From the NCBI GenBank assembly GCA_037969255.1, contig JBBKXB010000021.1:1-41318 (forward strand): a stretch of 41,318 nucleotides of DNA, written 5' to 3'. The notes below the pieces were generated by a model. That model was not told where the DNA came from and ran no database searches. It saw only the letters and a program-made list of their open reading frames with translations. The number at the start of each line of letters is the position of its first letter. Within the stretch, counting starts at the first letter, position 1. Below, in pieces: positions 11,488 through 32,822 of the stretch. A program made the position numbers and the translations under genes. The DNA comes from Bdellovibrionales bacterium. Lineage in GTDB: Bacteria; Pseudomonadota; Alphaproteobacteria; Micavibrionales; JBBKXB01.

Positions 11488-11501
11488 TATATTGACATAG
11501 T
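11488..11501 (+). repeat. 14-bp inverted repeat, left arm (TATATTGACATAGT), containing a sigma70 -35 box
   Basis: Exact reverse complement of 12066-12079; TTGACA at 11492 followed by GCTAATAAT and an AAGGA RBS. Confidence 0.8.
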
Positions 11502-11548: not shown

Positions 11549-11977
11549 ATGTCGACCGAAACAAGCAAGATCAATACAGTCATTGATGGTGCAGCACGAT
11601 ACTACACATCTGGTACTGGCAACCTGTCCAAAGTACCGAGTAACTTTCTGACCAACGGCGTAATAGCTGGTGTGATTAACTACGTTCTTACGGAGGCGCC
11701 TTCTGCTACAACCCAATTTACCATTGTATCATCTGGTGCTACATCTGCTATTGCATTTAGTCTTGCTATGCTATTAATAGCCCCTTCAATGATGCTCATG
11801 CTTCCTAAAGGGTTGGGAACAGCTGATCATAAAGAGCACACCAAATCAGATTTGTTGGGTAAGGGGCTTGCGTTGGCATTGCCTTTAATCGGCTCTATAG
11901 CTTGCGCCAATTATGTAGCACAAGATTTAAATTCTAGTCACGCAGCAAAACCATTACTATCAATAGTCGGTCTATAA
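11549..11977 (+). CDS. Small membrane protein, dispersed Gly/Ala family member
   Basis: Own promoter and RBS; family motif HTKSDLLGKGLALALP. Confidence 0.75.
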   Translation: MSTETSKINTVIDGAARYYTSGTGNLSKVPSNFLTNGVIAGVINYVLTEAPSATTQFTIVSSGATSAIAFSLAMLLIAPSMMLMLPKGLGTADHKEHTKSDLLGKGLALALPLIGSIACANYVAQDLNSSHAAKPLLSIVGL

Positions 11978-11978
11978 T

Positions 11979-12023
11979 TTAGTTATATTTTAATTCTCGG
12001 TTTTGCGAGGGTGACGTAGTCAT
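11979..12023 (-). other. 14-codon micro-ORF or truncated remnant (MTTSPSQNRELKYN)
   Basis: Preceded by TTGACA-N16-TATAGA and AAGGT; stops 1 nt from the stop of the convergent 11549 gene. Confidence 0.35.
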
Positions 12024-12065
12024 ACCTTATATTTTATTTAACCCTACTCTATAGCCAATTTTTCG

Positions 12066-12079
12066 ACTATGTCAATATA
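12066..12079 (-). repeat. 14-bp inverted repeat, right arm, containing a sigma70 -35 box
   Basis: ACTATGTCAATATA is the reverse complement of 11488-11501. Confidence 0.8.
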
Positions 12080-12081
12080 TT

Positions 12082-12098
12082 TTGGCATATAAATTGCA
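12082..12098 (+). promoter_or_regulatory. Sigma-54 (-24/-12) promoter
   Basis: TTGGCATATAAATTGCA with exact GG-N10-GC spacing (GG 12084-85, GC 12096-97). Confidence 0.7.
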
Positions 12099-12109
12099 CT
12101 GTATAAGAT

Positions 12110-12499
12110 ATGTTAGAAATCGCGCAATCCAACGCTATCCCTACACCTCAGAGTCAAACAAGTGACTCTAATACGTTTGCCAAGAAAACTTTTGAAAGCG
12201 TGATTGATACGGTGAACCCCCTTCATCACATACCCATTATTGGGCAATTATACCGCACAATTTCGGGCGATGAAATATCCCCACAATCAAGTTTCGCGGG
12301 TGGTTTTCTCTTTGGCGGGCCATTGGGCGCACTTGGTGCCACGGCGAGCCTTATTATTGGCGGGGTTATTGGTGATATGAGTGGGAATAATGACACGGTT
12401 CAAACGGCGTTTAATGCGCATAGTGCCAAAAATTTAGGCGGGGACGCACCCCGGCATCCCCGCATCGACATATCTGATCCATGGCGCTTTAACAGCTAA
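12110..12499 (+). CDS. Conserved hypothetical protein
   Basis: DTVNPLHHIPIIGQLYRTISGDEI...GGFLFGGPLG resembles a conserved proteobacterial hypothetical family. Confidence 0.75.
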   Translation: MLEIAQSNAIPTPQSQTSDSNTFAKKTFESVIDTVNPLHHIPIIGQLYRTISGDEISPQSSFAGGFLFGGPLGALGATASLIIGGVIGDMSGNNDTVQTAFNAHSAKNLGGDAPRHPRIDISDPWRFNS

Positions 12500-12540
12500 A
12501 TGGTCAAAGATGATTTGTACCTATACTATTTTCTAAGAAA

Positions 12541-13764
12541 TTATACGCGTAATGTATGAACCTGTGCTTCAAAACGCTTTGTTTTGCGGCGGTCACGCTT
12601 GATTGTTGGGAATGCAAGGATAATCGCACTGCCTTCATGTGTTGCTGTGTCGGCATTTTTAGATTTGCCTGTTTGCATTTTGATTTCTGCATCGCGGAAC
12701 GAGCGCTCGAATTTCACAAACCACATGAAATTAGCATTTGAACGGTCGCGCACTTCGCCATAAAACCCATCATCTAACAATGTCATGAAGTGATCGATAA
12801 GGTAGTTACGGCCAATGTTTGAACGTTTACCAACACTGCGCAAGGCTTCGATGGCTTCGCTGTTTGATGTTTCAATCGCTTCGCTCGCTTCATCACTAGA
12901 GGCAAGAAGCACTTGGATCAAAGCGCGATCGGCTTTGCGTGTACGACCTGAATAAAACCATTGATCAAAAGCAGCAATCGCGGCTTTACCATCGCGTAAA
13001 GCGCGGAAATCGTCACTTGCACGATGAGCAAAAGCGTAGGCTAAATCAGCCACACCGCTTTTTGATACGTAATCCCAAGCAGTGTTATCGCCCGATAATT
13101 TCATTTCCCATGCAACTTGAACCGGTGCACACGCAAGCTCAGCTTGCATAGAACGGTTCAAAAGGATCGCACGATCTGGATTGACCAATAATGCGCGCAC
13201 ATCCACCATTTGCATGGCGCGGATACCGCGAACAATATTAAGGGCTGTTGCCACTACATTTTGCGCGATTGGGATAAAGATGGTGTTTGATGCGTAATCT
13301 ACATCCATTTGATCAATTATATTACTCGCTTCAATGGCAATGTTATTGTCTGTGGCAAAAGCGATGTATTCACGAGCGAGGTCGCTGTGTTTAAGCATAT
13401 CCAATGCGTCATCAATGGATGAGCCTTGAACCGGTGCAAATGCATTTTCGCACAACGCGGCTAAATCGTCTGTTAAAGGAAGGCCACATTCTGGATCACC
13501 GAGTGTGATAAAACCTTCTGATGTTTCTTTGGCTTGTTTTAAAGCATCTGGGATCATGCTATCGGCAAGATCGGCTTCTAGGCTGTCTTCAAAGCTCATC
13601 ATGAGTTCGTCATCTGAAGCATCAGCATAAAAATGATTGTCAGAAGCCACAAAGCTACACATCACAGGCGCTTGCCCTTTAAATGTCATAGCTATTTTTG
13701 GCTGATTGCTTGAAAGCGCAACGGCGCTCATCATTTCATCTAGTATATTCTTGTTGTCGGACAT
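12541..13764 (-). CDS. Hypothetical protein, possibly a degenerate DUF6782-like metallopeptidase
   Basis: GGGAGAG RBS before ATG 13764; NRSMQAE...VQVAWEMK..G segment; no HExxH motif. Family call is tentative. Confidence 0.6.
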   Translation of the reverse strand: MSDNKNILDEMMSAVALSSNQPKIAMTFKGQAPVMCSFVASDNHFYADASDDELMMSFEDSLEADLADSMIPDALKQAKETSEGFITLGDPECGLPLTDDLAALCENAFAPVQGSSIDDALDMLKHSDLAREYIAFATDNNIAIEASNIIDQMDVDYASNTIFIPIAQNVVATALNIVRGIRAMQMVDVRALLVNPDRAILLNRSMQAELACAPVQVAWEMKLSGDNTAWDYVSKSGVADLAYAFAHRASDDFRALRDGKAAIAAFDQWFYSGRTRKADRALIQVLLASSDEASEAIETSNSEAIEALRSVGKRSNIGRNYLIDHFMTLLDDGFYGEVRDRSNANFMWFVKFERSFRDAEIKMQTGKSKNADTATHEGSAIILAFPTIKRDRRKTKRFEAQVHTLRV

Positions 13765-13800
13765 TTGATGTCTCTCCCTGGTACATGCGTCAATAAAACG

Positions 13801-13867
13801 GGTTCTTAAGAACCTCTTTTTCTGCGATACATTCATAATGACAAAGAATAGTTAACAAGGTGTGAAC
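13801..13867. promoter_or_regulatory. 14-bp palindrome plus CtrA-like site
   Basis: GGTTCTTAAGAACC (13801-13814, perfect palindrome); GTTAACAAGGTGTGAAC (13851-13867), i.e. TTAA-N7-TTAA with one mismatch. Confidence 0.45.
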
Positions 13868-13969
13868 AATGGCTAAAAATCCTACAATTCCTTTGATAGC
13901 CTTGGTTTTTGGGCGATTTTTATGCGCTAGCACGGATGGTTTTGCAGGCCACTTTCCTTAATCAACGCA

Positions 13970-14566
13970 TCAAGCGCTGAGCGCTTGATCTTGAACGGGC
14001 AATGTATCGGCCAATATCTCGGTTGGTTTCAACATGACAGAGCCCTTTTTATCAATCGTTGCCAGCGCTTTGAATAATTTATCACCGATCAAAAAACATC
14101 CCTCAATCTCATGGCTCGATTGAATATGAGTTGGCGTGATCAGCGCTTGCAAATTACGGCGCGTGATCAATGTTAATTCCTCGCGCAAAATTAGATCATC
14201 AACATTTTGGATGGTCAGAACGCGTCCCGCTTGACCGCGCGTGAACCCGAGATAGAAAAATAAATAATCACATATATTGGTCTTATTCAGGTCTAAACCC
14301 GCTTTTTGAACCAATGTTTCGACCACATCCCCACCATATTCGCAAAGGGAGACATCATTATCGATATCAATAATGTAGTGACGCTTTTGTGAAAGATCAT
14401 CTTCATCGATAATTTCGGCCAGACTTGACGACTTCTTAAAAAAATCTAATTTCCAAGAAAGGCCTTTCCATTTGGCTTTTTCAAGACCTGCTTTTTTGGC
14501 CCAATCTTGCGCCGCGCGTGTCTTGAGTAGGTCTGCGTCGCATTGGAGCGCTAGAGGAGGTGTCAT
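13970..14566 (-). CDS. Hypothetical protein (198 aa) flanking the origin
   Basis: AAGGA RBS, clean ORF, no recognised motif. Confidence 0.7.
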   Translation of the reverse strand: MTPPLALQCDADLLKTRAAQDWAKKAGLEKAKWKGLSWKLDFFKKSSSLAEIIDEDDLSQKRHYIIDIDNDVSLCEYGGDVVETLVQKAGLDLNKTNICDYLFFYLGFTRGQAGRVLTIQNVDDLILREELTLITRRNLQALITPTHIQSSHEIEGCFLIGDKLFKALATIDKKGSVMLKPTEILADTLPVQDQALSA

Positions 14567-14943
14567 CGATATGTCCTTTTGTCGGTTTCATTTAAGAATA
14601 TGATCTTAGGGGCGCTATCGGGGATGAAGCGCGTTTCGCATAGGATCAACTCTGTGGACAATCATGGGGGAAAATACTTATCCACCCAAGCCTTTTTTCA
14701 CCCCCACCTTATCCCCATGTGTAAAACTTGGAATCTGTATTGGGCATAGAGTCTAAAGAATCAATTTTTTCAAAGCCCTTAAATATGAAATAGCAGACTC
14801 ATAGATCTGGGGATAAGGAGTCAGTGCACGTGATTCATATAGATCAATTACAACAATAAATACAGATTAAGACTCTTCATTAAATTAAGATTACTCATCC
14901 CTCTTTTCAAACCGACCTAACTCGTGTCAGTGTCCTAACCAAC
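14567..14943. other. Candidate chromosomal replication origin (oriC)
   Basis: Intergenic region upstream of hemE, the usual alphaproteobacterial position. DnaA-box variants: TGTGGACAA 14653, TTATCCACC 14678, TTATCCCCA 14709, TGGGGATAA 14808. Seven GANTC sites between 14731 and 14875, and an AT-rich stretch at ~14840-14895. Confidence 0.8.
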
Positions 14944-15933
14944 ATGAACAACAAAACTTTATCGCATAAAAATATTAACAATTCCTTAATGGGTCAAAAA
15001 CCTATTTGGCTTATGCGACAAGCGGGACGCTATTTGCCTGAATACATGGACATCCGTCAAAAAATAGGTGGGTTTGTTGATCTTTGTATGAACCCTGATA
15101 TGGCATCCGAAGTGACCTTGCAACCCATAAAACGCTTTGATTTTGATGCTGCGATTATCTTTTCTGATATCTTGATGATCCCTTATGCATTGGGTCAAAA
15201 ACTATGGTTTGAAACGGGTGAAGGGCCACGACTTGGTGATCTTAATTGGCATGAATTTGACGCTCAAAAACTTCAACCCGTATACGATGCCATCACACTG
15301 ACCCGTCAAAATTTAGACGATGAAAAATCATTAATAGGCTTTGCGGGTGCGCCTTGGACATTACTACTTTATACCTTGCAAGGACGCGGTGGTAATGACT
15401 TTGTAACCGCACGTTCCATGGTTTATAATGATCTTGAAAATGCTAAAAAACTTTTAAAAATCTTAGAACAATCGGTGATTGAGCATTTGTCTAATCAGAT
15501 AAAAGCGGGCGCCGATGTGGTTCAAATATTTGATAGCTGGGCGGGTCTATGCCCTGCACAATTGCAAAATGATTTCTTGATTGACCCCGTTAAGAATATC
15601 GTTAGCGCGCTTAAAAAACTGCATCCTGATGTGACCATTATTGCGTTTCCAAAGGGCTATAAAGACCTTAATCAATACACAAAAATTATTGGCAATGATG
15701 TGGTCGGGATTGATCAGTTTTCGCATCTTACATGGGTTGATAAAGATATTGCGACCCAAGGCAATCTTGATCCGCTGGTTCTTATTCAAGGTGGTGATGT
15801 TTTAGAAAAAGCGGTTCTATCAATCTTAGAGAAAACAGAAAACCGCGCCCATATTTTCAATCTTGGTCATGGCATTGATAAAACAACGCCCATCGCCCAC
15901 GTCGAACAACTTGTAAGATTTGTAAAAGGGTAA
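14944..15933 (+). CDS. hemE: Uroporphyrinogen decarboxylase
   Basis: PIWLMRQAGRYLPEY, LIGFAGAPWTL, HIFNLGHGI. Confidence 0.98.
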   Translation: MNNKTLSHKNINNSLMGQKPIWLMRQAGRYLPEYMDIRQKIGGFVDLCMNPDMASEVTLQPIKRFDFDAAIIFSDILMIPYALGQKLWFETGEGPRLGDLNWHEFDAQKLQPVYDAITLTRQNLDDEKSLIGFAGAPWTLLLYTLQGRGGNDFVTARSMVYNDLENAKKLLKILEQSVIEHLSNQIKAGADVVQIFDSWAGLCPAQLQNDFLIDPVKNIVSALKKLHPDVTIIAFPKGYKDLNQYTKIIGNDVVGIDQFSHLTWVDKDIATQGNLDPLVLIQGGDVLEKAVLSILEKTENRAHIFNLGHGIDKTTPIAHVEQLVRFVKG

Positions 15934-15934
15934 T

Positions 15935-16378
15935 TTAAGAAGGAGTACAGTTAGAATATCGAATTGCATTTCCTTTCATATTTGTACAATCTAAAACGCC
16001 AGATTCAAGAACTACAGGCTGTACTTTGTGTTGTTCAGGCAGTTGAGTTGAAATAGCCATTATTGTTGCAGCAGCACCAATCAGATATGATCCGGATGTT
16101 GTAAATGGTTTACCTGATTCCACAGCAACAACAGTAGCAGCAACAACAGTAGCAGCAGCACCAATAATAGCAACACCCAAAAGAGCAGCACCAGTAACAA
16201 CAGTAGCACCACCAGGACCAATAGCAGCACTAATAGCAGCATAAGCACCAATAGCCTTATAAACAGCACCAGCACTAATAGTAGCACCAATAATAGTACC
16301 ACATAACCCACTGCCAACAACAGCCATCAGTAATTTCTTAGTACCGTTATCTTCAAATCCAGTTGTGATTTCACTCAT
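15935..16378 (-). CDS. Small glycine-zipper membrane protein with C-terminal Cys pair, dispersed family member
   Basis: Promoter, AAAGGA RBS and ATG; long Gly/Ala/Ile/Val tract; ends ..DC...SNCTPS. Confidence 0.75.
   Translation of the reverse strand: MSEITTGFEDNGTKKLLMAVVGSGLCGTIIGATISAGAVYKAIGAYAAISAAIGPGGATVVTGAALLGVAIIGAAATVVAATVVAVESGKPFTTSGSYLIGAAATIMAISTQLPEQHKVQPVVLESGVLDCTNMKGNAIRYSNCTPS
16122..16327 (-). repeat. Low-complexity trinucleotide tract (GCT/GGT/GTT/ATT/ACT codons)
   Basis: Nearly all codons of the minus-strand ORF in this stretch end in T and start with a purine. Confidence 0.8.
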
Positions 16379-16411
16379 TATAATTTCCTTTGTTTAATAA
16401 ATATTTAAAAC

Positions 16412-16440
16412 AGACTACATAGTTGTTTTTAATATGTCAA
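16412..16440 (-). promoter_or_regulatory. Sigma70-type promoter of the 15935-16378 gene
   Basis: TTGACA-tattaaaaacaactatg(17)-TAGTCT. Confidence 0.7.
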
Positions 16441-16487
16441 TACATATTTTATGACAGTGATGTTATTTATTGTTAAAAATATAACCC

Positions 16488-17522
16488 ATGAAAACAGCGG
16501 TCATATTATTTAATCTTGGTGGACCTGATAGCGCCTCATCTATTAAACCGTTTTTGAAAAACTTCTTTATGGACAAAGCCATTATTCCCGCGCCGCGCCC
16601 GTTTCGTGATGTGATATCGAGCCTGATTGCCAATAAACGATCCCGCGCAGAGGCTGGTCAGAGCTATGGCGAGATAGGTGGAGCATCACCACTCCTTAAA
16701 AACACGAACGCACAAGCGGACGCGCTTCAAATAACCCTTGGTGATGATTTTAAAACCTTTACGTGCATGCGCTATTGGCATCCCATGGCAAAAGATGTTG
16801 TGGGGCAGGTCAAAGACTACAACCCAGAGCGCATCATTTTATTACCCCTTTACCCACAACTTTCAACAACCACCACCAGCTCGAGCTACAAAGAGTGGAT
16901 GAAACATGCTAAAAAAACGGGTCTAAAATCACAAACTTTGGCGTGCTGTTATCCAACGAATGAAGGCTTTATAACAGCCAGCGCGGATAACATAAAATTG
17001 AAATATAACGAAATGGTCAAAAATGGTCAAACACCGCGCGTGTTATTTTCCGCCCACGGTGTGCCGTTATTTGTGCTTAAACGCGGTGATCCGTATCAAT
17101 GGCAATGCACACAAACCGCCCATGCCATTGTTAAAAAACTAAGCATCAAGGATTTAGATTGGGCAGAATGTTATCAATCACGCGTGGGGCCAACCAAATG
17201 GACAACGCCGTCCGTTGAGGACGAACTGAAACGCGCCGCCAGTGATAAAACGCCCGTGCTTTTATACCCCCATGCGTTTGTGAGTGAGCATGTGGAAACG
17301 CTTGTCGAGCTCGATATTGAATATAAAGACATGGCCGAAGGTTTGGGTATCAAAGGATATGAGCGCGCGCAAACCGTGTCGACCCATCCCGATTTTATCG
17401 CAGGGTTAAAAAAGATTGTTCTAAACGCTTTAAAGGACGATAATAACATCCAAGGCGCTGGTAAAAATGGACAATCTATATGCCCACCACAATTCACCGC
17501 CTGCGCGTGTCGAAATAATTAG
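16488..17522 (+). CDS. hemH: Ferrochelatase (Cys-rich C-terminus, probable [2Fe-2S] type)
   Basis: LFNLGGP, MRYWHP, LPLYPQ, LFSAHG, YQSRVGP, FVSEHVETLVELD; C-terminal Cx6CxC. Confidence 0.97.
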   Translation: MKTAVILFNLGGPDSASSIKPFLKNFFMDKAIIPAPRPFRDVISSLIANKRSRAEAGQSYGEIGGASPLLKNTNAQADALQITLGDDFKTFTCMRYWHPMAKDVVGQVKDYNPERIILLPLYPQLSTTTTSSSYKEWMKHAKKTGLKSQTLACCYPTNEGFITASADNIKLKYNEMVKNGQTPRVLFSAHGVPLFVLKRGDPYQWQCTQTAHAIVKKLSIKDLDWAECYQSRVGPTKWTTPSVEDELKRAASDKTPVLLYPHAFVSEHVETLVELDIEYKDMAEGLGIKGYERAQTVSTHPDFIAGLKKIVLNALKDDNNIQGAGKNGQSICPPQFTACACRNN

Positions 17523-18017
17523 TTATTTTGGAACACAACTCTTAGGCACAAATACAGTGCGTGACCCATCGGGATTTTTTGTGATGACAGGTTTATTTTC
17601 CGATGAAGCGCATTTAAAATTAAGACGAGCATCATGCGCTATTGGCGGTGAAACAATAGGCTTTGGATTATTTAATTCGTGTTGATAGGCCACATAACCA
17701 GCCGTTAACGGCAGCCCTAAACCAACAGCAACCCCAAATAATTGGCTTATTTTATGTTTTTTTCGATCTACATTTCCACCAACAGCGCCACCAACAACAG
17801 CACCAAGAGCAAGAGCCCCAACAGCCCCAAGAGCAAGAGCCCCAAGAGCACCACCACCAACAACAGCCCCAAGAGCACTAACAGCACCAACAGCCCCAAG
17901 AGCACCAACACCAAGAGCACCAACAACAACAGCCCCAAGAGCACCAATAGCACCAACAGCACTACCACCAACAGCATCAGCAGCAGTTGAGATTCTATCT
18001 TTTAAAATTTGTTCCAT
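17523..18017 (-). CDS. Small glycine-zipper membrane protein with C-terminal Cys pair, dispersed family member
   Basis: AAAGGA RBS; MEQILKDRIST, (GA[LV])n tract, HKISQLFGVAVGLGLP motif; ends KC...KSCVPK. Confidence 0.78.
   Translation of the reverse strand: MEQILKDRISTAADAVGGSAVGAIGALGAVVVGALGVGALGAVGAVSALGAVVGGGALGALALGAVGALALGAVVGGAVGGNVDRKKHKISQLFGVAVGLGLPLTAGYVAYQHELNNPKPIVSPPIAHDARLNFKCASSENKPVITKNPDGSRTVFVPKSCVPK
17777..17986 (-). repeat. Degenerate tandem repeat encoding (G-A-[LVI])n
   Basis: Recurrent ccccaagagc / accaacagc units; the + strand has only about 4 T in ~210 nt. Confidence 0.88.
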
Positions 18018-18047
18018 ATTAATAATCCTTTTTATTTTAATAATGCC

Positions 18048-18076
18048 AACTCAGCACAATATTTACAATATGTCAA
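18048..18076 (-). promoter_or_regulatory. Sigma70-type promoter of the 17523-18017 gene
   Basis: TTGACA-tattgtaaatattgtgc(17)-TGAGTT; the -10 box is weak. Confidence 0.55.
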
Positions 18077-18122
18077 TAATTATTATGTCGCAGAGTTGCT
18101 GTTTTTGGCTATTATGCTTGTC

Positions 18123-18551
18123 ATGACTTTTTACCTTATTTTAAAAGCCCTACACATTATCGCCGTGATTTCATGGATGGCTGGAATGCTTTATTTGCCG
18201 CGCTTGTTTGTGTATCACATGGAGGCTAAATCAAAGGAGACACGCGAGACGTTCAAAACGATGGAGCGCCGTTTGTATAAATACATTATGACCCCTGCCA
18301 TGATTGGGACGTGGCTTCTTGGCATAACGTTACTCGCACAACAACCGTATTATATGACCCAAGGGTGGATGCACGCCAAATTATTATTGGTATTACTAAT
18401 GAGCGGTGCACATGGTTATATGGGCGGCTGCGTCCGAAAATTTGCTAGCGATGCCAACACAAAATCATCAAAATTTTACCGTTACCTCAATGAAGTCCCA
18501 ACGCTTTTGATGATCGTTATTGTATTCTTGGTGATCTTAAAAGGGTTTTGA
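18123..18551 (+). CDS. hemJ: Protoporphyrinogen IX oxidase HemJ
   Basis: KALHIIAVISWMAGMLYLPRLFVYH, MERRLY, WMHAKL, NEVPT. Start moved from TTG 18009 to ATG 18123. Confidence 0.96.
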   Translation: MTFYLILKALHIIAVISWMAGMLYLPRLFVYHMEAKSKETRETFKTMERRLYKYIMTPAMIGTWLLGITLLAQQPYYMTQGWMHAKLLLVLLMSGAHGYMGGCVRKFASDANTKSSKFYRYLNEVPTLLMIVIVFLVILKGF

Positions 18552-18923
18552 TATAGGAGCGGGGGCAGAAGAAGCAGTTGATATCCTCATAGTATTATGA
18601 TTTTTATCAATACTACCTAATGTTATTGGTGTTCCTAGTCCCGCAATGACAGCCATTAACGTTATTGCTTTATGAGTTCCAAATCTCGTATTAGCACCGG
18701 CACTTATTTGTTTATTGGGCATCCAATTACCTTGTTCGGTTCTATGAGCAATGACTGTTTTTGGAGATGAATTGTAAGCCCAAATCATACCAGAAAGACA
18801 AATTATAATTCCACCAGCCAAAGCTCCCATATTAGACCCATCCAGAAAAAGCCCTGCCAAGCCACTTAACGCGAAAGCACCGCTTCCAGTCGAAATTCTA
18901 TTTTTTGTTACTTGTTTCATCAT
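18537..18923 (-). CDS. Small membrane protein, dispersed family member
   Basis: AGAGGA RBS; MKQVTKNRIST and HKAITLMAVIAGLGTP motifs; overlaps the hemJ end by 15 nt. Confidence 0.75.
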   Translation of the reverse strand: MMKQVTKNRISTGSGAFALSGLAGLFLDGSNMGALAGGIIICLSGMIWAYNSSPKTVIAHRTEQGNWMPNKQISAGANTRFGTHKAITLMAVIAGLGTPITLGSIDKNHNTMRISTASSAPAPISKPF

Positions 18924-18941
18924 GATATCCTCTTTAATTTT

Positions 18942-19247
18942 TTAAGGCGTTAAAACACCAGCGCCTGTCATAACGGGCAATGCAAGGCCTGTTAATCCGC
19001 CCAATGTTACAGCCAGTGCATGTGAAGCTAGATTTTTAGACTCTCCACTTGAGCTTAACCCGACCGAGTTTTTTGCAAAAGCACCGCCGAACATTATTAA
19101 AACCATTCCAACCACCGCAGCACCTGTTCTTGCGGCACCTTCAAAAGCTATAGGCGTAATTAGAAGCGCAGCAATAGCTCCTATAGCCAGCCCTAGTGAC
19201 ATAGTATTAAAATGATTGCTGGTTCTTTTAATGATACTTTTATTCAT
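18942..19247 (-). CDS. Small membrane protein, dispersed family member
   Basis: AAGGGGG RBS before ATG 19247; three hydrophobic segments; HALAVTLGGLTGLALP motif. Confidence 0.75.
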   Translation of the reverse strand: MNKSIIKRTSNHFNTMSLGLAIGAIAALLITPIAFEGAARTGAAVVGMVLIMFGGAFAKNSVGLSSSGESKNLASHALAVTLGGLTGLALPVMTGAGVLTP

Positions 19248-19275
19248 GGTAGCCCCCTTGATCTTTGACACCAAT

Positions 19276-19304
19276 TTAATAACAACCTTATTTTAATATG
19301 TCAA
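19276..19304 (-). promoter_or_regulatory. Sigma70-type promoter of the 19247/18923 gene pair
   Basis: TTGACA-tattaaaataaggttgt(17)-TATTAA. Confidence 0.65.
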
Positions 19305-19456: not shown

Positions 19457-20713
19457 ATGAATTTAAAAGACCTCAAAGCCCACAAACCTAACGAACTCAT
19501 TGAACTTGCTGAAGAGCTAGAGATTGAGAACATACCCTCCCTTCGTAAACAAGAATTGATGCTCGCCATCCTTAAGCAAATGGCCGATGACGGCGAAGTG
19601 TTGCATGGTGGCGGTGTGATCGAAGTCCTTCAAGACGGATTTGGATTTTTACGTTCTGCTGAGGAAAACTATCTTCCAGGGCCCGACGATATTTACATGG
19701 CACCCGCCCAAGTTAAGAAATTTGGCCTACGCACAGGCGACACAGTCGAGGGCGAGATCCGCGCTCCCAAAGACAATGAACGCTATTTCGCGATGCTTAA
19801 CATTGAAAGCATCAACCATGATGAGCCTGAAAAACTGCGCCATCGCATTAACTTTGATAATTTAACGCCGCTTTATCCCGATCGTAAGATCAAGCTTGAG
19901 CTAGACGATAAAACAAAAGACGACAACACACAGCGCGTGATTGAACTTGTGACACCGCTTGGTTTTGGTCAACGTGCATTGATTGTTGCCCCGCCACGCG
20001 TGGGTAAAACAGTGATGCTCCAAAACATCGCGCATTCAATCTCTGCCAATCATCCCGAAGCCTATTTGATGGTATTGCTTATCGATGAACGCCCCGAAGA
20101 AGTGACCGACATGGATCGCTCTGTGAAGGGTGAAGTGGTTAGCTCAACATTTGATGAACCCGCGACACGCCACGTACAAGTGGCCGAAATGGTGATCGAA
20201 AAAGCAAAACGTCTTGTCGAGGCCAAACGCGATGTCGTGATTTTGCTTGATAACATCACGCGTCTTGCGCGCGCTTATAACACTGTTGTGCCATCATCGG
20301 GTAAAGTGCTTACGGGTGGTGTGGATGCCAACGCTTTGCAACGTCCAAAACGTTTCTTTGGTGCGGCGCGTAATGTTGAACAAGGCGGATCGTTGACCAT
20401 TATTTCAACATCCTTAATTGATACAGGCTCTCGCATGGATGAAGTGATCTTTGAAGAGTTCAAAGGAACGGGTAATGCCGAGATCGTGCTTGATCGTAAA
20501 ATCGCTGATAAACGTGTGTTCCCAGCCATTGACGTTCAAAAATCAGGAACTCGTAAAGAAGAATTGCTTGTCGATAAAGCCACATTGCAAAAAATGTGGA
20601 TATTGCGCCGTATCTTGAACCCAATGGGGACTGTGGATGCGATGGAATTCTTGCTTGGAAAACTTAAAGACACCAAATGCAATAATGACTTCTTTAATGG
20701 GATGAACCAGTAA
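19457..20713 (+). CDS. rho: Transcription termination factor Rho
   Basis: [45 protein letters not shown]. Confidence 0.99.
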
Positions 20714-20724
20714 AACTGATTGCT

Positions 20725-21051
20725 TTACAGCCCTAAAGTTTTAGCCGAGATGGTTAAATTTTCTGCTGGAGTGAGCTCAGGACTATGAAGCGTTGCCCCC
20801 GTAAGAGCCGCAGCAGTGGCTGCTGTAACAAAGGCAGTTTTAACAGCATCCAATTTGCGTCCAACAGCAAAAGTGCCTACAGCGCCAGCTAAATTCAATA
20901 CATATGATACAGCTTCGTGACCTGGACTTTCGATCCCGTCAGCCGCCATGTAAGACCTCATAACGAAACCTACTGCGCACATTATGCCAAAAGCAGTTCC
21001 TGCTAGACCGGCGCCTATAATTTTCCCTACATTTGATTGCGAATGATTCAT
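20725..21051 (-). CDS. Small Gly/Ala-rich membrane protein, probable dispersed family member
   Basis: AGGAG RBS before ATG 21051; three hydrophobic segments; family-type promoter. Confidence 0.72.
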   Translation of the reverse strand: MNHSQSNVGKIIGAGLAGTAFGIMCAVGFVMRSYMAADGIESPGHEAVSYVLNLAGAVGTFAVGRKLDAVKTAFVTAATAAALTGATLHSPELTPAENLTISAKTLGL

Positions 21052-21074: not shown

Positions 21075-21102
21075 AGTATACATTATTTTAACATTATGTC
21101 AA
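21075..21102 (-). promoter_or_regulatory. Sigma70-type promoter overlapping the last codons of the upstream gene
   Basis: TTGACA-taatgttaaaataatg(16)-TATACT; TTG ACA TAA is Leu-Thr-stop of the 21094 gene. Confidence 0.65.
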
Positions 21103-22557
21103 TAAATTATATCCATATACTGATCCTGCAATTACAATCATCACCGCAATTTCCCATCCCAAGCGTGGACGCGGTGTGTAGGTGAATTTATGGGATCGTG
21201 CGAACTGCATTTTACCAAAGATTATAATGCCGTGGAACACGATGATGCCTAAGATTGCGCCCACTAATGCCCCAATGATACCGCCGATAAACCATGATAA
21301 TCCCAGCGTCACGATGACACTGAGCGCCCATGCGAGGATGCGTTCTTTTCTGGTTTGTGCGATGATTTTGGAACGCGCTTTGGTTAATACTTCTTTGCGT
21401 GTACGCTCTGATAAACCAATTGGATATTTTTTGGCGACGATATAATTGGCCTTTTTAATCCCGTAATGGAGCACGTTTTCAAGCGCTTCATTGTATAAAC
21501 GTTTTGCATTATCGCTATATTTATCAAGGAATGTTGGGCAATGATTGATGCGCCCTTTGCGCCCCGCGGCTGTGACATCAAACGCCGCTTTGTCTTTGAC
21601 TTTGACGATGGTTTCGCACCATGGAATATCGCTCTCAATGCGGTAATAGAGGCTATTTGGATTGCCCTTAATCGTGCGTCTTGTTTCGTCCTCGGACGTG
21701 TCAGGTGGACTGGTCATGGGTTTGCCTATGACACTCATGGGTAAGTGTCCTTTTTTGGCCAAAACGCCAATGGCCGCAACGCCCAATAAATGGGATACGG
21801 CTCTGGGGGGTTCCGCGCTCATACGATGTGCCTGTACGCGCCATGCGAATGATAGACCCATCACATATTCTTTTTCACCCGATCCACCACACTCACGGCA
21901 ATGGCTGTGTCCCGTGCCATTACAAGGCTGACAACTTGTGACGCCATGTCCATCACACCGCAGACAACGCGTACGTCCATCGCCACCGCACCACGTACAC
22001 AAGGGGTCACTTAGATTGCCTTCGCCGCTGTGTCCCTTACCGCGACATTGTCCGCACCACTCTGTGCGCTCGCCTCGACATTGCGGACATACAGATTGCC
22101 CTTTGCCATGACATACAGGGCACCCGCCTTTGCCTTTGCCACTGCACGCATTGCATGGATCCTTATAGCCAAAATTGTAATGAAGCCCCGTGATGGGATA
22201 AATAGGTCTATCACCCTCTAGCCCCATGGCAGAGCGCTTTAATATTGTGCCTTCAATCACCGCCATGGCCTCAGGGCTTGTCATCAATCCTTCGGCTGCA
22301 CGTTCAATTTCCTCGGTCATTTCGGCTTTCGAGCCATAAATATGCGTTTTTTGATCTTTGGATTTCGTTGGTTTATCGTCTTGGTCAATGATTAAGCTCA
22401 GCTCAAGCAGGCTTTCGAGCTTAAATTTACCCGTTTCTTCACATACGAATTCAATGTCTTGCTTGGTGATCCCGTTGCCTTTGCTGACATAGGCAATCCC
22501 GCTCATAATTTTACGAGCTAGCGGTGATGCATTTTTGGGATAAGTATTTTCCATCAC
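21094..22557 (-). CDS. DnaJ-type zinc-finger (8x CxxCxGxG) membrane protein lacking a J-domain
   Basis: Eight CxxCxG motifs, no HPD motif, three C-terminal hydrophobic segments. Confidence 0.8.
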   Translation of the reverse strand: MMENTYPKNASPLARKIMSGIAYVSKGNGITKQDIEFVCEETGKFKLESLLELSLIIDQDDKPTKSKDQKTHIYGSKAEMTEEIERAAEGLMTSPEAMAVIEGTILKRSAMGLEGDRPIYPITGLHYNFGYKDPCNACSGKGKGGCPVCHGKGQSVCPQCRGERTEWCGQCRGKGHSGEGNLSDPLCTWCGGDGRTRCLRCDGHGVTSCQPCNGTGHSHCRECGGSGEKEYVMGLSFAWRVQAHRMSAEPPRAVSHLLGVAAIGVLAKKGHLPMSVIGKPMTSPPDTSEDETRRTIKGNPNSLYYRIESDIPWCETIVKVKDKAAFDVTAAGRKGRINHCPTFLDKYSDNAKRLYNEALENVLHYGIKKANYIVAKKYPIGLSERTRKEVLTKARSKIIAQTRKERILAWALSVIVTLGLSWFIGGIIGALVGAILGIIVFHGIIIFGKMQFARSHKFTYTPRPRLGWEIAVMIVIAGSVYGYNLLT

Positions 22558-24200: not shown

Positions 24201-24557
24201 TTATTTAATATTAAGCGCCATAGTTGCTATAGCTATGGCTGTTGCGGGCCCACCAATGAGCATACTAGTTTTTACACTAGCTTCAGAATATCCACCTAAG
24301 TTTGAGATGGCCATATTGCGGCTGCCTTTAGCAAGCGCTCCTGAAATAACTGCAATTATGCCTAACGCAATTGTTCCATTATTTATTCCAGATTCCGCCG
24401 CTTTAAATACAGTGGCTCCAGAGTGGAAAAGGCAAACGCCCAGAAACAGGCTTGCTAAAAATTGTTGTGCATGACCAAAGAATCGCGGTGCTTGAGTAAC
24501 AATATCATCAAACTCTTTATCAATATTTCTTGGGGTACGAGTATCAAATTCAACCAT
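24201..24557 (-). CDS. Small membrane protein between mnmE and mnmG, probable dispersed family member
   Basis: AAGGA RBS; TTGATA-N17-CATAAT promoter at 24611-24639; three hydrophobic segments; SMLIGGPATAIAIAT resembles SYLIGAAATIMAIST of the 15935 gene. Confidence 0.72.
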   Translation of the reverse strand: MVEFDTRTPRNIDKEFDDIVTQAPRFFGHAQQFLASLFLGVCLFHSGATVFKAAESGINNGTIALGIIAVISGALAKGSRNMAISNLGGYSEASVKTSMLIGGPATAIAIATMALNIK

Positions 24558-30280: not shown

Positions 30281-32822
30281 CGGACACCACTATGTTCACA
30301 ATTTTCCCAGGGATAGCGATGATTTTACGCACCGTTTTTCCGTTCAAATATTTGGCGATATGATCGTCATTCATCGCCTCTTTTTCAAGAGTATCTTTGT
30401 CAATATCGGTGGGAACAGTGATTGTACCGCGCACTTTGCCGTTTATTTGTACGCCAATTGTGACGTTTTCATCAATCAAATATGCCTCATTAAATGTTGG
30501 CCAATCGGAGAGATAAAGGGGTGTTTTATGACCGAGATTCTCCCACAATTCTTCGCATAAATGGGGAACAATAGGAGAGAGTAATTGCACAATGGTTTGG
30601 AGCGCGTACGTGTATGCGTCATCATCCATGCCGACTTGTTCAGCCATGTTATAAAGCTCGCGGATACGCGCCACAGATTTATTATAATGGAAGTTTTCAA
30701 TATCGTCCGATATGCCGGATATGGTTTGATGGGCTTTACGTGCCAGCTCATTATCCACATCATTATCCACAGGTTTATCAACGATATCTTGCACAGAGCG
30801 ATATAATTTATTGATAAAGCGCCACGCGCCATCAAGGCCCGCTTCTGACCATTCCAGATCACGATCTGGCGGGCTGTCGGATAGAATGAACAAACGGGCG
30901 GCATCTGCGCCATAGCTTTCAAATATATCGGTGGGATCAATCACATTTTTCTTGGATTTGGACATTTTAATGACCGCGCCCGCTGTGACCTTGAGATTTG
31001 ATCCTTTTTCACTTAACGATCCGTCATCGTTTTTGATGATGTCGGAGGGAAACACCCATTTATCATCCGCGTTTTTATAGGCGCGGTGATTGACCATGCC
31101 TTGCGTGTAGAGACCCTTAAACGGTTCTTTTATGTCCAAATACCCACAATGTTTCATAGCGCGGGTGAAGAAACGTGCGTAAAGAAGATGCATCACCGCA
31201 TGCTCGACACCGCCAATATATTGATCCACGGGTAGCCATTTATTGGCCTTAGACGCTTCAAACGGTTTGTTTTCATTGCGCGGATCGGTATAGCGTGCGA
31301 AATACCACGAGCTTTCAAAAAACGTGTCAAATGTATCCGTTTCGCGGATCGCAGGCTCGCCCGTTTCGGGGCATGTCGTATGTTTCCATGTTGGATGATT
31401 ATCAAGTGGATTGCCGTGCTGGGAAAAATCCACATCATCGGGCAAAGTAATTGGCAATTGATCTTTTGACACGGGGACACAAGCCCCATCAGATGTGCGA
31501 TACACCACAGGGATCGGGCAACCCCAATAACGTTGGCGTGACACGCCCCAATCGCGCAGGCGATAATTGGTTTGACCTTCGCCAATGCCCATTTTTTCCA
31601 TGCAAGCGATGATCTTTGTAATGGCTTCATCAGATGTGAGGCCATCCCATTCGTCAGAATTAACAAGCGTGCCTTTGCTGGTGAACGGTTTGCCGTCTTC
31701 AAAGCCAGCGCCCGTGATAACGGGGCGAATTGGCAGGCCGTATTTGGTGGCGAAATCAAAATCACGTTCATCGTGGGCAGGCGCGGATTTCACAGCGCCC
31801 GTTCCGTATGTGTAGATCACGAAATTACCGATATAAACGGGCATGTCCTCGTTCGTGAAAGGGTGGCGCACAGTGTAAGGCGTTTTAAAACCTTTCTTTT
31901 CGGCGCGTTCAATCGCCTCTTCACTTGTGCCCATTGTGCTACATTCTTCTAAGAAAGCTTCGGCATCTTTATCCGTTTCGGCAAGTTTCAAAGAAAGAGG
32001 ATGTTCAGGGGCAAGTACGGCAAAGCTCGTGCCCATGATGGTATCAATGCGTGTTGTGTAAACGGGTAGTTTTTCATCGCTTGCAAGATCAGGCCCAGAG
32101 ATATCAAAGCTAAAGGTTATGCCCTCAGATTTGCCAATCCAATGTTTTTGCATGGTTTTTACGCGTTCTGGCCAATCGGGCATGTTATCCAGTTCTGATA
32201 ATAACTCGTCGGCAAATTGCGTGGTTTTTAAAAACCATTGTTTTAAGTTTTTACGCTCGACAGCCGCGCCAGAGCGCCAACCTTTGCCATCAACCACTTG
32301 TTCGTTGGCCAATACTGTGTTTTCAACAGGATCCCAATTCACCGTGGATTCTTTTTGGTAGGCGAGGCCGTTTTTAAGAAAATCAAGGAACATGGCTTGT
32401 TCGTGTTTAAAATAGTCAGGGTGACAGGTGGCAATTTCTCTGTCCCAATCAAGAGATAGACCCATAAGTTTCAATTGACCGCGCATCACGGCGATGTTTT
32501 CATACGTCCATGTGGCGGGCTGTGCACCTCGTTCGATGGCGGCATTTTCGGCAGGCAAACCAAACGCATCCCAGCCCATTGGATGGAGCACATTATAGCC
32601 TTTTGCGCGTTTATAGCGCGCCACAACGTCGCCAAGTGTGTAATTGCGGACATGCCCAACATGGATTGCGCCCGACGGATAGGGAAACATTTCGAGCACA
32701 TAAAAAGGCTCTTTATCGGAGTCATCATCCGTTTTAAAAGCGTTGTTATCATTCCAAATTTTTTGCCATTTGGATTCGGTGGCGCGGATGTTGTAGCGAT
32801 CATTATCGGATGTGTCAGACAT
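30270..32822 (-). CDS. leuS: Leucine--tRNA ligase
   Basis: [42 protein letters not shown]. Confidence 0.99.
30751..30783 (+). promoter_or_regulatory. Tandem DnaA boxes inside leuS
   Basis: TTATCCACA 30751, TTATCCACA 30763 and TTATCAACG 30775, at a 12-bp period. Confidence 0.55.

Follow-up and report, generated by a model that had tools for sequence, protein, structure and literature searches.

In well-studied cases, small-xxx-small surfaces let two membrane helices pack closely, and helices with tandem GxxxG motifs promote transmembrane (TM) self-association; the small-xxx-small example helices that the source cites drive self-association (PMC13689184). One of them belongs to EspZ, a two-TM protein of 98 amino acids with a self-associating second TM helix (TM2) of the GxxxG type, which carries a tandem GxxxGxxxG (PMC13689184). 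Here, we describe four small genes whose products share a helix with a comparable spacing of small residues. The genes lie in a stretch of 41,318 nucleotides that constitutes one contig (JBBKXB010000021.1, our C21; hereafter the window) of assembly GCA_037969255.1, the genome of a Bdellovibrionales bacterium that GTDB places in the order Micavibrionales. This genome comprises 1,414,171 bases in 105 contigs, with 43.5% G+C, and is 96.9% complete and 1.7% contaminated. We designate the genes 17523, 18537, 18942 and 11549 after their lowest coordinates in the window (Table 1). A sequence-only reading of this DNA had aligned 20 residues from the last hydrophobic segment of each product, had described the shared pattern H-x6-[GA]-x3-[GA]-L-[GA]-[LT]-P and had considered the four proteins to be paralogs. 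All four blocks were found at these genes as quoted, and they align without gaps. Our analysis confirms that the likeness is real and well beyond chance.

Within the block, His1, Leu13 and Pro16 are invariant, and Gly8, Gly12 and Gly20 are each present in three of the four proteins, the fourth having Ala, Ala and Ser, respectively. Searched as a regular expression against all six-frame open reading frames (ORFs) of at least 40 amino acids in the whole genome (9,241 ORFs, hereafter the ORF set), the pattern matched four times, always in the family, and its five-residue core, [GA]L[GA][LTIVM]P, gave only 28 matches. The motif is not a common property of Gly-rich TM helices, which was the objection that the sequence-only reading had raised against itself: among 1,860 hydrophobic segments from 2,773 ORFs of at least 80 amino acids (238 of them with at least 25% Gly plus Ala), the expression matched four, again all from the family. 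Because the expression was written from the four sequences themselves, tests free of this circularity were added. With a BLOSUM62 profile built from the other three blocks, the left-out blocks of 17523, 18537 and 18942 outscore all windows of the 9,237 non-family ORFs. When the four proteins were searched without bias for their top-scoring common stretch of 20 ungapped residues, exactly this block was returned with a sum-of-pairs score of 183, compared with 86.5 ± 11.7 after shuffling whole proteins and 101 ± 11.7 after shuffling within TM or loop segments; the score of the block was reached in none of 300 shuffles of either type (z = 7-8). The profile of all four blocks scores 41.8-55.2 in the family versus 23.2 in the best other ORF, and it revealed no further family member in the ORF set.

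The proposal that the four proteins are paralogs despite their low overall identity is also borne out, as it is backed by the block statistics, by BLASTP and phmmer, by a common architecture and by scrambled synonymous sites. A BLASTP comparison of 17523 with 18537 gives an E value of 1e-5, with 28% identity over nearly the full length, and in a leave-one-out test the N-terminal boxes of these two proteins outscore every one of the 825,312 windows in the ORF set; the same window test found no significant likeness for the N-termini of 18942 and 11549. A phmmer search of the ORF set with 17523 returned 18537 (E = 0.007) and 11549 (E = 0.011) as the best matches other than itself. The similarity of 17523 and 11549 immediately after the block, which had been remarked on earlier, is present in the sequence, and this pair has a BLASTP E value of 0.028. 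We consider the paralogy of 17523 and 18537 to be firm, that of 18942 to be well supported and that of 11549 to be probable.

The block is conserved at the protein level and is not a DNA repeat. Pairwise identity within it is 0.51 at the first codon position, 0.49 at the second and 0.29, approximately the random level, at the third; the same codon is used in only 10 of the 41 pairs of identical residues, and the invariant Pro is encoded by CCG, CCA, CCC and CCT. A repeat comparison of the region found no DNA repeat over the blocks. The scrambled codons and the lack of a DNA repeat indicate that the duplications are old and that the amino acids of the helix were held while the rest of each protein drifted.

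We take the four ORFs to be real genes. A log-odds score of codon usage, with 544-560 ORFs that have at least 300 amino acids as its training set, is positive only in the annotated frame of each (0.13-0.36, with 0.21 for HemH and 0.18 for HemJ), and it exceeds that of all 454 shadow ORFs of similar length in three cases and of 450 of the 454 in the remaining case. Purine-rich ribosome-binding sites precede the start codons, and the gene callers of the public collection predict all four as proteins. The longest ORF of 18942 begins at a TTG at position 19274, and an AAGGGGG ribosome-binding site stands ahead of the ATG that we use. Only 18 nucleotides separate the stop codon of 18942 from 18537, and the pair looks like one transcription unit.

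The products are small membrane proteins of 101-164 amino acids with three helices. Hydropathy reveals a common build in all four, in which a short polar N-terminal segment leads into one or two hydrophobic stretches, and a polar loop that closes with the His connects these to the motif helix. In 17523, the N-terminal box MEQILKDRIST is followed by a low-complexity hydrophobic stretch of approximately 60 residues of Gly, Ala, Val and Leu; the loop NVDRKKHK then leads to the motif helix, behind which lies a polar tail of 53 residues with two Cys. In 18537, the box MKQVTKNRIST precedes a two-helix hydrophobic hairpin, a loop of 35 residues and the motif helix. By hydropathy, a two-lobed hydrophobic domain spans residues 25-50 of 18537 and residues 12-62 of 18942. 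An AlphaFold 2 monomer model of 18942 places helices at residues 5-29, 39-61 and 74-93; its confidence is low (mean predicted local distance difference test score 50.5, predicted template modelling score 0.24), and it was used for secondary structure alone. The His lies in the first turn of the third helix and the Pro two residues before its end, and because the helix runs straight through the Pro in this low-confidence model, the Pro kink suggested earlier is not shown. A predicted complex of four copies of 18942, computed with a four-row alignment, scored 0.00 with an uncertain fold of the partners, and it carries no weight in either direction. Applying the positive-inside rule, we infer a membrane topology for the four proteins in which the His that opens the helix probably lies at the cytoplasmic boundary, with the N-terminus and the loop predicted inside and the tail outside; basic residues adjoin the His in two members.

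We propose that the four genes are paralogs that separated long ago and have diverged strongly, and that they form a lineage-specific family encoding small inner-membrane proteins. On this view, each protein starts with a short polar segment, continues with a hydrophobic hairpin rich in Gly and Ala and with a polar, often basic loop, and has a third helix that is the only part under purifying selection. This helix opens with the invariant His at the membrane boundary and presents small residues at positions 8, 12, 14 and 20 together with the invariant Leu13 and Pro16; given the spacing of four residues, positions 8, 12, 16 and 20 fall on one face. The helix may thus form a small-xxx-small (GxxxG-like) packing surface, facing either the hairpin of its own chain or, in homo- or hetero-oligomers, the similar helices of other subunits. 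All four blocks have [GA]8-x3-[GA]12 within the last hydrophobic segment, that is, small residues at i and i+4, and the row extends to SxxxGxxxG in 17523 and to AxxxGxxxG in 18942. That the family is a real set of paralogs with a selected helix is, in our judgment, very probable. That packing or oligomerisation is the purpose of the motif is a plausible but tentative suggestion, made from the residue pattern, and the explanation as a whole, family and packing helix together, we consider probable by a small measure.

Several results weigh against this explanation. The protein 18942 is linked to the family through the block only, with a BLASTP E value of 1.9 against 18537 and no phmmer match, and in the leave-one-out test of the blocks four non-family ORFs score as high as or higher than 11549, which ranks fifth rather than first. 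HMMER profiles perform worse: full-length profiles recovered none of the four left-out members, and profiles of 28 residues around the block mostly fail, with one of the four recovered (17523, E = 2.4e-5). The bare skeleton [GAS]x3[GAS]x3P is frequent (145 of the 1,860 hydrophobic segments), the strict tandem GxxxGxxxG occurs in none of the four blocks, and the presence of GxxxG alone is, according to PMC13689184, a weak predictor of dimerisation. At its low confidence, the model of 18942 gives no tertiary packing, a helix contact is seen in none of the analyses, and in the absence of orthologs the ratio of nonsynonymous to synonymous substitution rates cannot measure the selection. Moreover, the sequence occurs in no listed RNA run; the single run that contains it is DNA, labelled sediment metagenome.

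Some of these results could also be read to mean that the likeness is a chance or compositional convergence of Gly-rich stretches, a repeat at the DNA level or a product of spurious ORFs. The failure of most HMMER leave-one-out tests and the frequency of the small-xxx-small-xxx-Pro skeleton fit this view, as do the low-complexity DNA of 17523, which leaves other frames open, and a promoter-consensus scan of the region that stays at chance (24 sites versus 24.3 expected). However, the regular-expression, leave-one-out, profile and shuffle statistics oppose convergence, the codon-position identities, the scrambled synonymous codons and the lack of a repeat at the blocks oppose a DNA repeat, and a coding score that is positive in the annotated frame only and lies above nearly all shadow ORFs opposes spurious ORFs. 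We find this explanation barely credible.

Table 1. Positions of the family, its motif blocks and upstream boxes, and neighbouring genes in the window
Feature	Position	Strand	Remark
17523	17523..18017	-	family member, 164 amino acids
18537	18537..18923	-	family member, 128 amino acids; second of tandem pair
18942	18942..19247	-	family member, 101 amino acids from ATG
11549	11549..11977	+	most distant member, 142 amino acids
15935	15935..16378	-	neighbouring orphan, 147 amino acids; Gly/Ala-rich hydrophobic stretch
Motif block HKISQLFGVAVGLGLPLTAG	17697-17756	-	in 17523
Motif block HKAITLMAVIAGLGTPITLG	18615-18674	-	in 18537
Motif block HALAVTLGGLTGLALPVMTG	18963-19022	-	in 18942
Motif block HTKSDLLGKGLALALPLIGS	11837-11896	+	in 11549
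TATTGACATA box	11490..11499	+	59 nucleotides before start codon of 11549
TATTGACATA box	18069..18078	-	61 nucleotides before start codon of 17523
TTGACATA box	19297..19304	-	before the 18942-18537 pair; 17-nucleotide spacer, then TATTAA
Other TATTGACATA decamer	12068-12077	-	
Other TATTGACATA decamer	16433-16442	-	
Other TATTGACATA decamer	21095-21104	-	
SecB, Tim44-like protein, MltA, Smr		+	first part of conserved gene string (family matches)
HemE	14944-15933	+	
HemH	16488-17522	+	
HemJ/UPF0093	18009-18551	+	Pfam match from residue 39
Rho	19457-20713	+	
MnmE, MnmG, RsmG, ParA, ParB		+	last part of the string

The conserved helix could instead be a recognition element, namely, the docking site of a common partner, a membrane-insertion or sorting signal, or the site of an intramembrane protease, rather than a surface for self-packing. 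Only the helix and the His that precedes it were kept while the rest of the proteins drifted, and a docking or processing signal would look alike. Furthermore, helix-weakening Gly and Pro inside a TM segment are typical of intramembrane-protease substrates. Nevertheless, the genome has no match to the rhomboid family (PF01694) at its 96.9% completeness, whereas 14 of 14 control genomes were positive, and a substrate of rhomboid or of rhombosortase (GlyGly-CTERM type) was rejected as a candidate. In the GlyGly-CTERM type, the signal helix stands at the extreme C-terminus and is followed by a basic cluster; here, the hydrophobic segment is followed by tails of 5, 23, 17 and 53 residues without a fixed basic cluster. 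The adjoining genes offer no conserved candidate for a partner, and the corresponding gaps of relatives hold unrelated insertions. We regard a recognition element as unlikely, and a packing surface remains the reading that we prefer.

The position of the genes might suggest another role. Three members and the orphan 15935 occupy, on the opposite strand and as small ORFs without family matches, the spaces directly between hemE, hemH, hemJ and rho in an otherwise conserved gene string, and their ends meet the haem genes tail to tail. The distances are 1 nucleotide at hemE (15933/15935), none at hemH (17522/17523) and an overlap of 15 nucleotides at hemJ (18537-18551), and such tight convergent ends leave no room for terminators between the genes. 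On this basis, the boundary His, the sole invariant polar residue, might bind haem or a metal, and the family might be an accessory of HemE, HemH and HemJ. The comparison with relatives speaks against this role. The genome is the sole member of its bacterial family among the genomes compared, and all relatives used belong to the same order. In 23 same-order loci, the hemE-hemH-hemJ-rho string is usually tight, with gaps of approximately 30-60 nucleotides and approximately 300 nucleotides before rho, whereas the gaps here, with the orphans inside, measure 555, approximately 590 and 905 nucleotides. Some relatives carry unrelated genes in the same gaps: a GIY-YIG-like ORF, toxin-antitoxin-like pairs, an acetyltransferase-like ORF and an ORF of 209 amino acids. 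In one relative (genome G024; locus L034, 2008-2529), a small membrane ORF stands at the same position on the opposite strand but is unrelated to the family (hhalign E = 0.12). Across the order, the gaps of this string thus act as places that tolerate insertion, and because the adjacency of orphans and haem genes is not conserved in relatives, a functional link to haem synthesis is weakened. In addition, the fourth member lies 3 kb ahead of hemE among other genes that match no family, each chain has one His and no obvious ligand pair, and searches of the family libraries gave no match to any haem-binding family. We consider a haem-related role very improbable.

The orphan 15935 resembles 17523 in several respects. 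Its tail also has two Cys and ends in C-T-P-S (C-V-P-K in 17523), the same upstream box precedes it, and the 50-nucleotide stretches upstream of the two genes are 70% identical. As a family member, it receives no support from the sequence tests (profile rank 1239, hhalign E = 0.28, BLASTP E = 0.74), and 12110 was likewise unsupported as a further member by profile and alignment tests. Imperfect tandem GCN/GGN/GTN repeats with periods of 9-66 nucleotides, at 17777-17985 and 16122-16306, encode the hydrophobic stretches of 17523 and 15935, respectively, and keep other frames open as well.

Each transcription unit, that of 15935 included, has the sequence TTGACATA 55-64 nucleotides upstream of its start codon, and the complete decamer TATTGACATA is present at three of these boxes. 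Genome-wide, the decamer occurs 34 times versus 5.4 times expected from base composition, mostly 30-65 nucleotides before small ORFs without an obvious identity, many of which have hydrophobic stretches. The second hexamers of the boxes are weak, and the consensus promoter scan mentioned above did not list the boxes before 11549, 15935, 17523 and 18942. We regard the box as a common upstream element and a putative promoter; the decamer could represent the -35 region in the strongest promoters or, alternatively, a common regulatory site. One copy (12068-12077, minus strand) points left into the 3′ end of 11549, has no ORF of at least 40 amino acids behind it and may drive an antisense transcript.

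The gene order of the window, from SecB through the haem genes and Rho to ParA and ParB, is typical of the origin region in alphaproteobacterial chromosomes. DnaA-box-like sites number 23 in the window versus 11.5 expected; four of them, with one mismatch each, cluster at 14653-14816 in the spacer before hemE, and two perfect DnaA boxes stand 12 nucleotides apart at 30751 and 30763 (region 30751-30771). The cumulative GC skew changes direction at approximately 22-23 kb. A replication origin probably lies inside the window. If all of the features of the locus are combined, the four proteins, perhaps with 15935, might be subunits of one lineage-specific hetero-oligomeric membrane pore or scaffold zipped together by the H-x6-small-x3-small-L-small-x-P helix. 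The family would have expanded beside the probable origin, its genes lodged against hemE, hemH and hemJ with their 3′ ends facing, and the His would be a ligand of haem or a metal or a contact to HemJ or ferrochelatase; we consider this combination decidedly improbable.

Other genes of the window also lack a clear identity. Among the unmatched genes before hemE, a protein of 431 amino acids (12541-13836, minus strand) matches DUF6782, a putative metallopeptidase family (E = 1.6e-13). A protein of 487 amino acids without a Pfam match (21094-22557, minus strand) has C-terminal hydrophobic helices and a long run of C-x-x-C-x-G-x-G repeats, units that resemble the DnaJ zinc-finger pattern. Further unmatched small hydrophobic ORFs lie between rho, mnmE and mnmG (20725-21051 and 24201-24557, both on the minus strand) and after 11549 (12110-12499, plus strand), and the motif is absent from these three.

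Relatives of the family were sought widely. The full-length profile of the four members, run against 1.84 billion representative proteins, returned only the four themselves; among the 48 candidates of a word-index search with 18537, the protein itself was the only match, and scans of genome contigs and metagenome contigs found no relative. Among 40 relatives of the genome, the best match to the full profile (E = 0.0126) contains two internal stops and is noise, and the lone match over the motif region is an ORF of 66 amino acids in an intergenic spacer flanked by two unrelated genes. The block of 28 residues, searched against 319 further genomes of the order, gave one match (E = 0.0045), which lies antisense inside an ORF of 492 amino acids and is also noise. 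Nothing exceeded the thresholds in Pfam, NCBIfam, PHROGs, PADLOC or the PDB sequences. For 17523, no Pfam family appeared at E values up to 10; the other members have sub-threshold Pfam matches only, to the unrelated MARVEL (17.1 bits versus a cut-off of 32.8), DUF6232 and ABC2_membrane_5. A PDB profile match to MotA (E = 0.008) is limited to the Gly/Ala-rich stretch. The best ESM Atlas values, 0.76 and 0.83, belong to unnamed clusters and lie within the range of shuffled proteins, and a scan of seven small proteins gave no PHROGs family at E values up to 0.1, phage holins included. The family is restricted to one genome and is new, although of an ordinary kind. Profiles that miss their own left-out members would let relatives as diverged as the paralogs escape, and with such weak sensitivity these searches show only that close orthologs are absent from the public data.

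If our preferred reading is correct, the family would be a clean natural case of small membrane proteins that drift while one helix face is kept, marking the residues that matter, and the list of mutants would be short and cheap: His1, small8, small12, Leu13 and Pro16. The locus also illustrates that the normally tight hemE-hemH-hemJ-rho string tolerates insertions of new genes, the gaps being filled here by one expanding family. Metagenome-assembled genomes commonly contain orphan families of small membrane proteins, and in this respect the finding is ordinary.

Among described systems, several small Gly-rich membrane proteins offer themselves for comparison. The Gly-rich Pfam families include the glycine-zipper 2TM or 17-kDa antigen type, the YMGG type and the GlsB/YeaQ/YmgE 'transglycosylase-associated' type; the proteins described here are likewise small, Gly-rich and multi-helical, but they differ in having no Pfam match above threshold. 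The VirB2/TrbC pilins are of similar size, their two or three hydrophobic helices are rich in Gly and Ala, and several diverged paralogs occur in some lineages. This candidate was rejected, as TrbC (PF04956) was found neither in the proteins (E up to 10) nor in the genome (E up to 1). VirB4 (PF03135) had no match in the genome, with a positive control in Caulobacter.

In chlamydial Inc proteins and EspZ, the hydrophobic domain is two-lobed and a TM helix is rich in Gly; these proteins share with those described here a small size, a short polar stretch at the N-terminus and two hydrophobic helices that lie close together. The two-helix hydrophobic hairpins of 18537 and 18942 and the small genome (1.41 Mb) could accordingly suggest exported hairpin proteins aimed at the membrane of another cell, and PMC13689184 adds that EspZ self-associates through its GxxxG-type TM2. 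Unlike that type, however, the proteins described here have a third helix with the motif, and no sequence match and no injectisome were found. At the completeness given above, the lone FHIPEP match of the genome lies in a flagellar cluster, so no non-flagellar type III secretion was detected; this cluster (L037, G000:C40:6000-24000) encodes FliF, FliG, FliN, MotA, a sigma-54 activator, FlhA, FlhF, a MinD-like ATPase and FliI. Export is also opposed by the lack of VirB4 and TrbC/VirB2 matches, other secretion systems not having been searched, by the lack of an ATP/ADP translocase match, although that control was positive in no genome, and by the sediment origin on the label of the only run with the sequence. 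We consider such exported proteins extremely improbable.

The closest parallel to the helix itself is found in the small-xxx-small or GxxxG and glycine-zipper motifs of glycophorin A, VacA and EspZ TM2, which form a motif class and not a homologous family. Self-association of the proteins described here is putative. As in that class, small residues stand four apart on one face, and two of the blocks extend the row to S/A4-x3-G8-x3-G12. Unlike the GxxxG definition, the row here runs into an invariant Pro and is preceded, seven residues earlier, by an invariant His.

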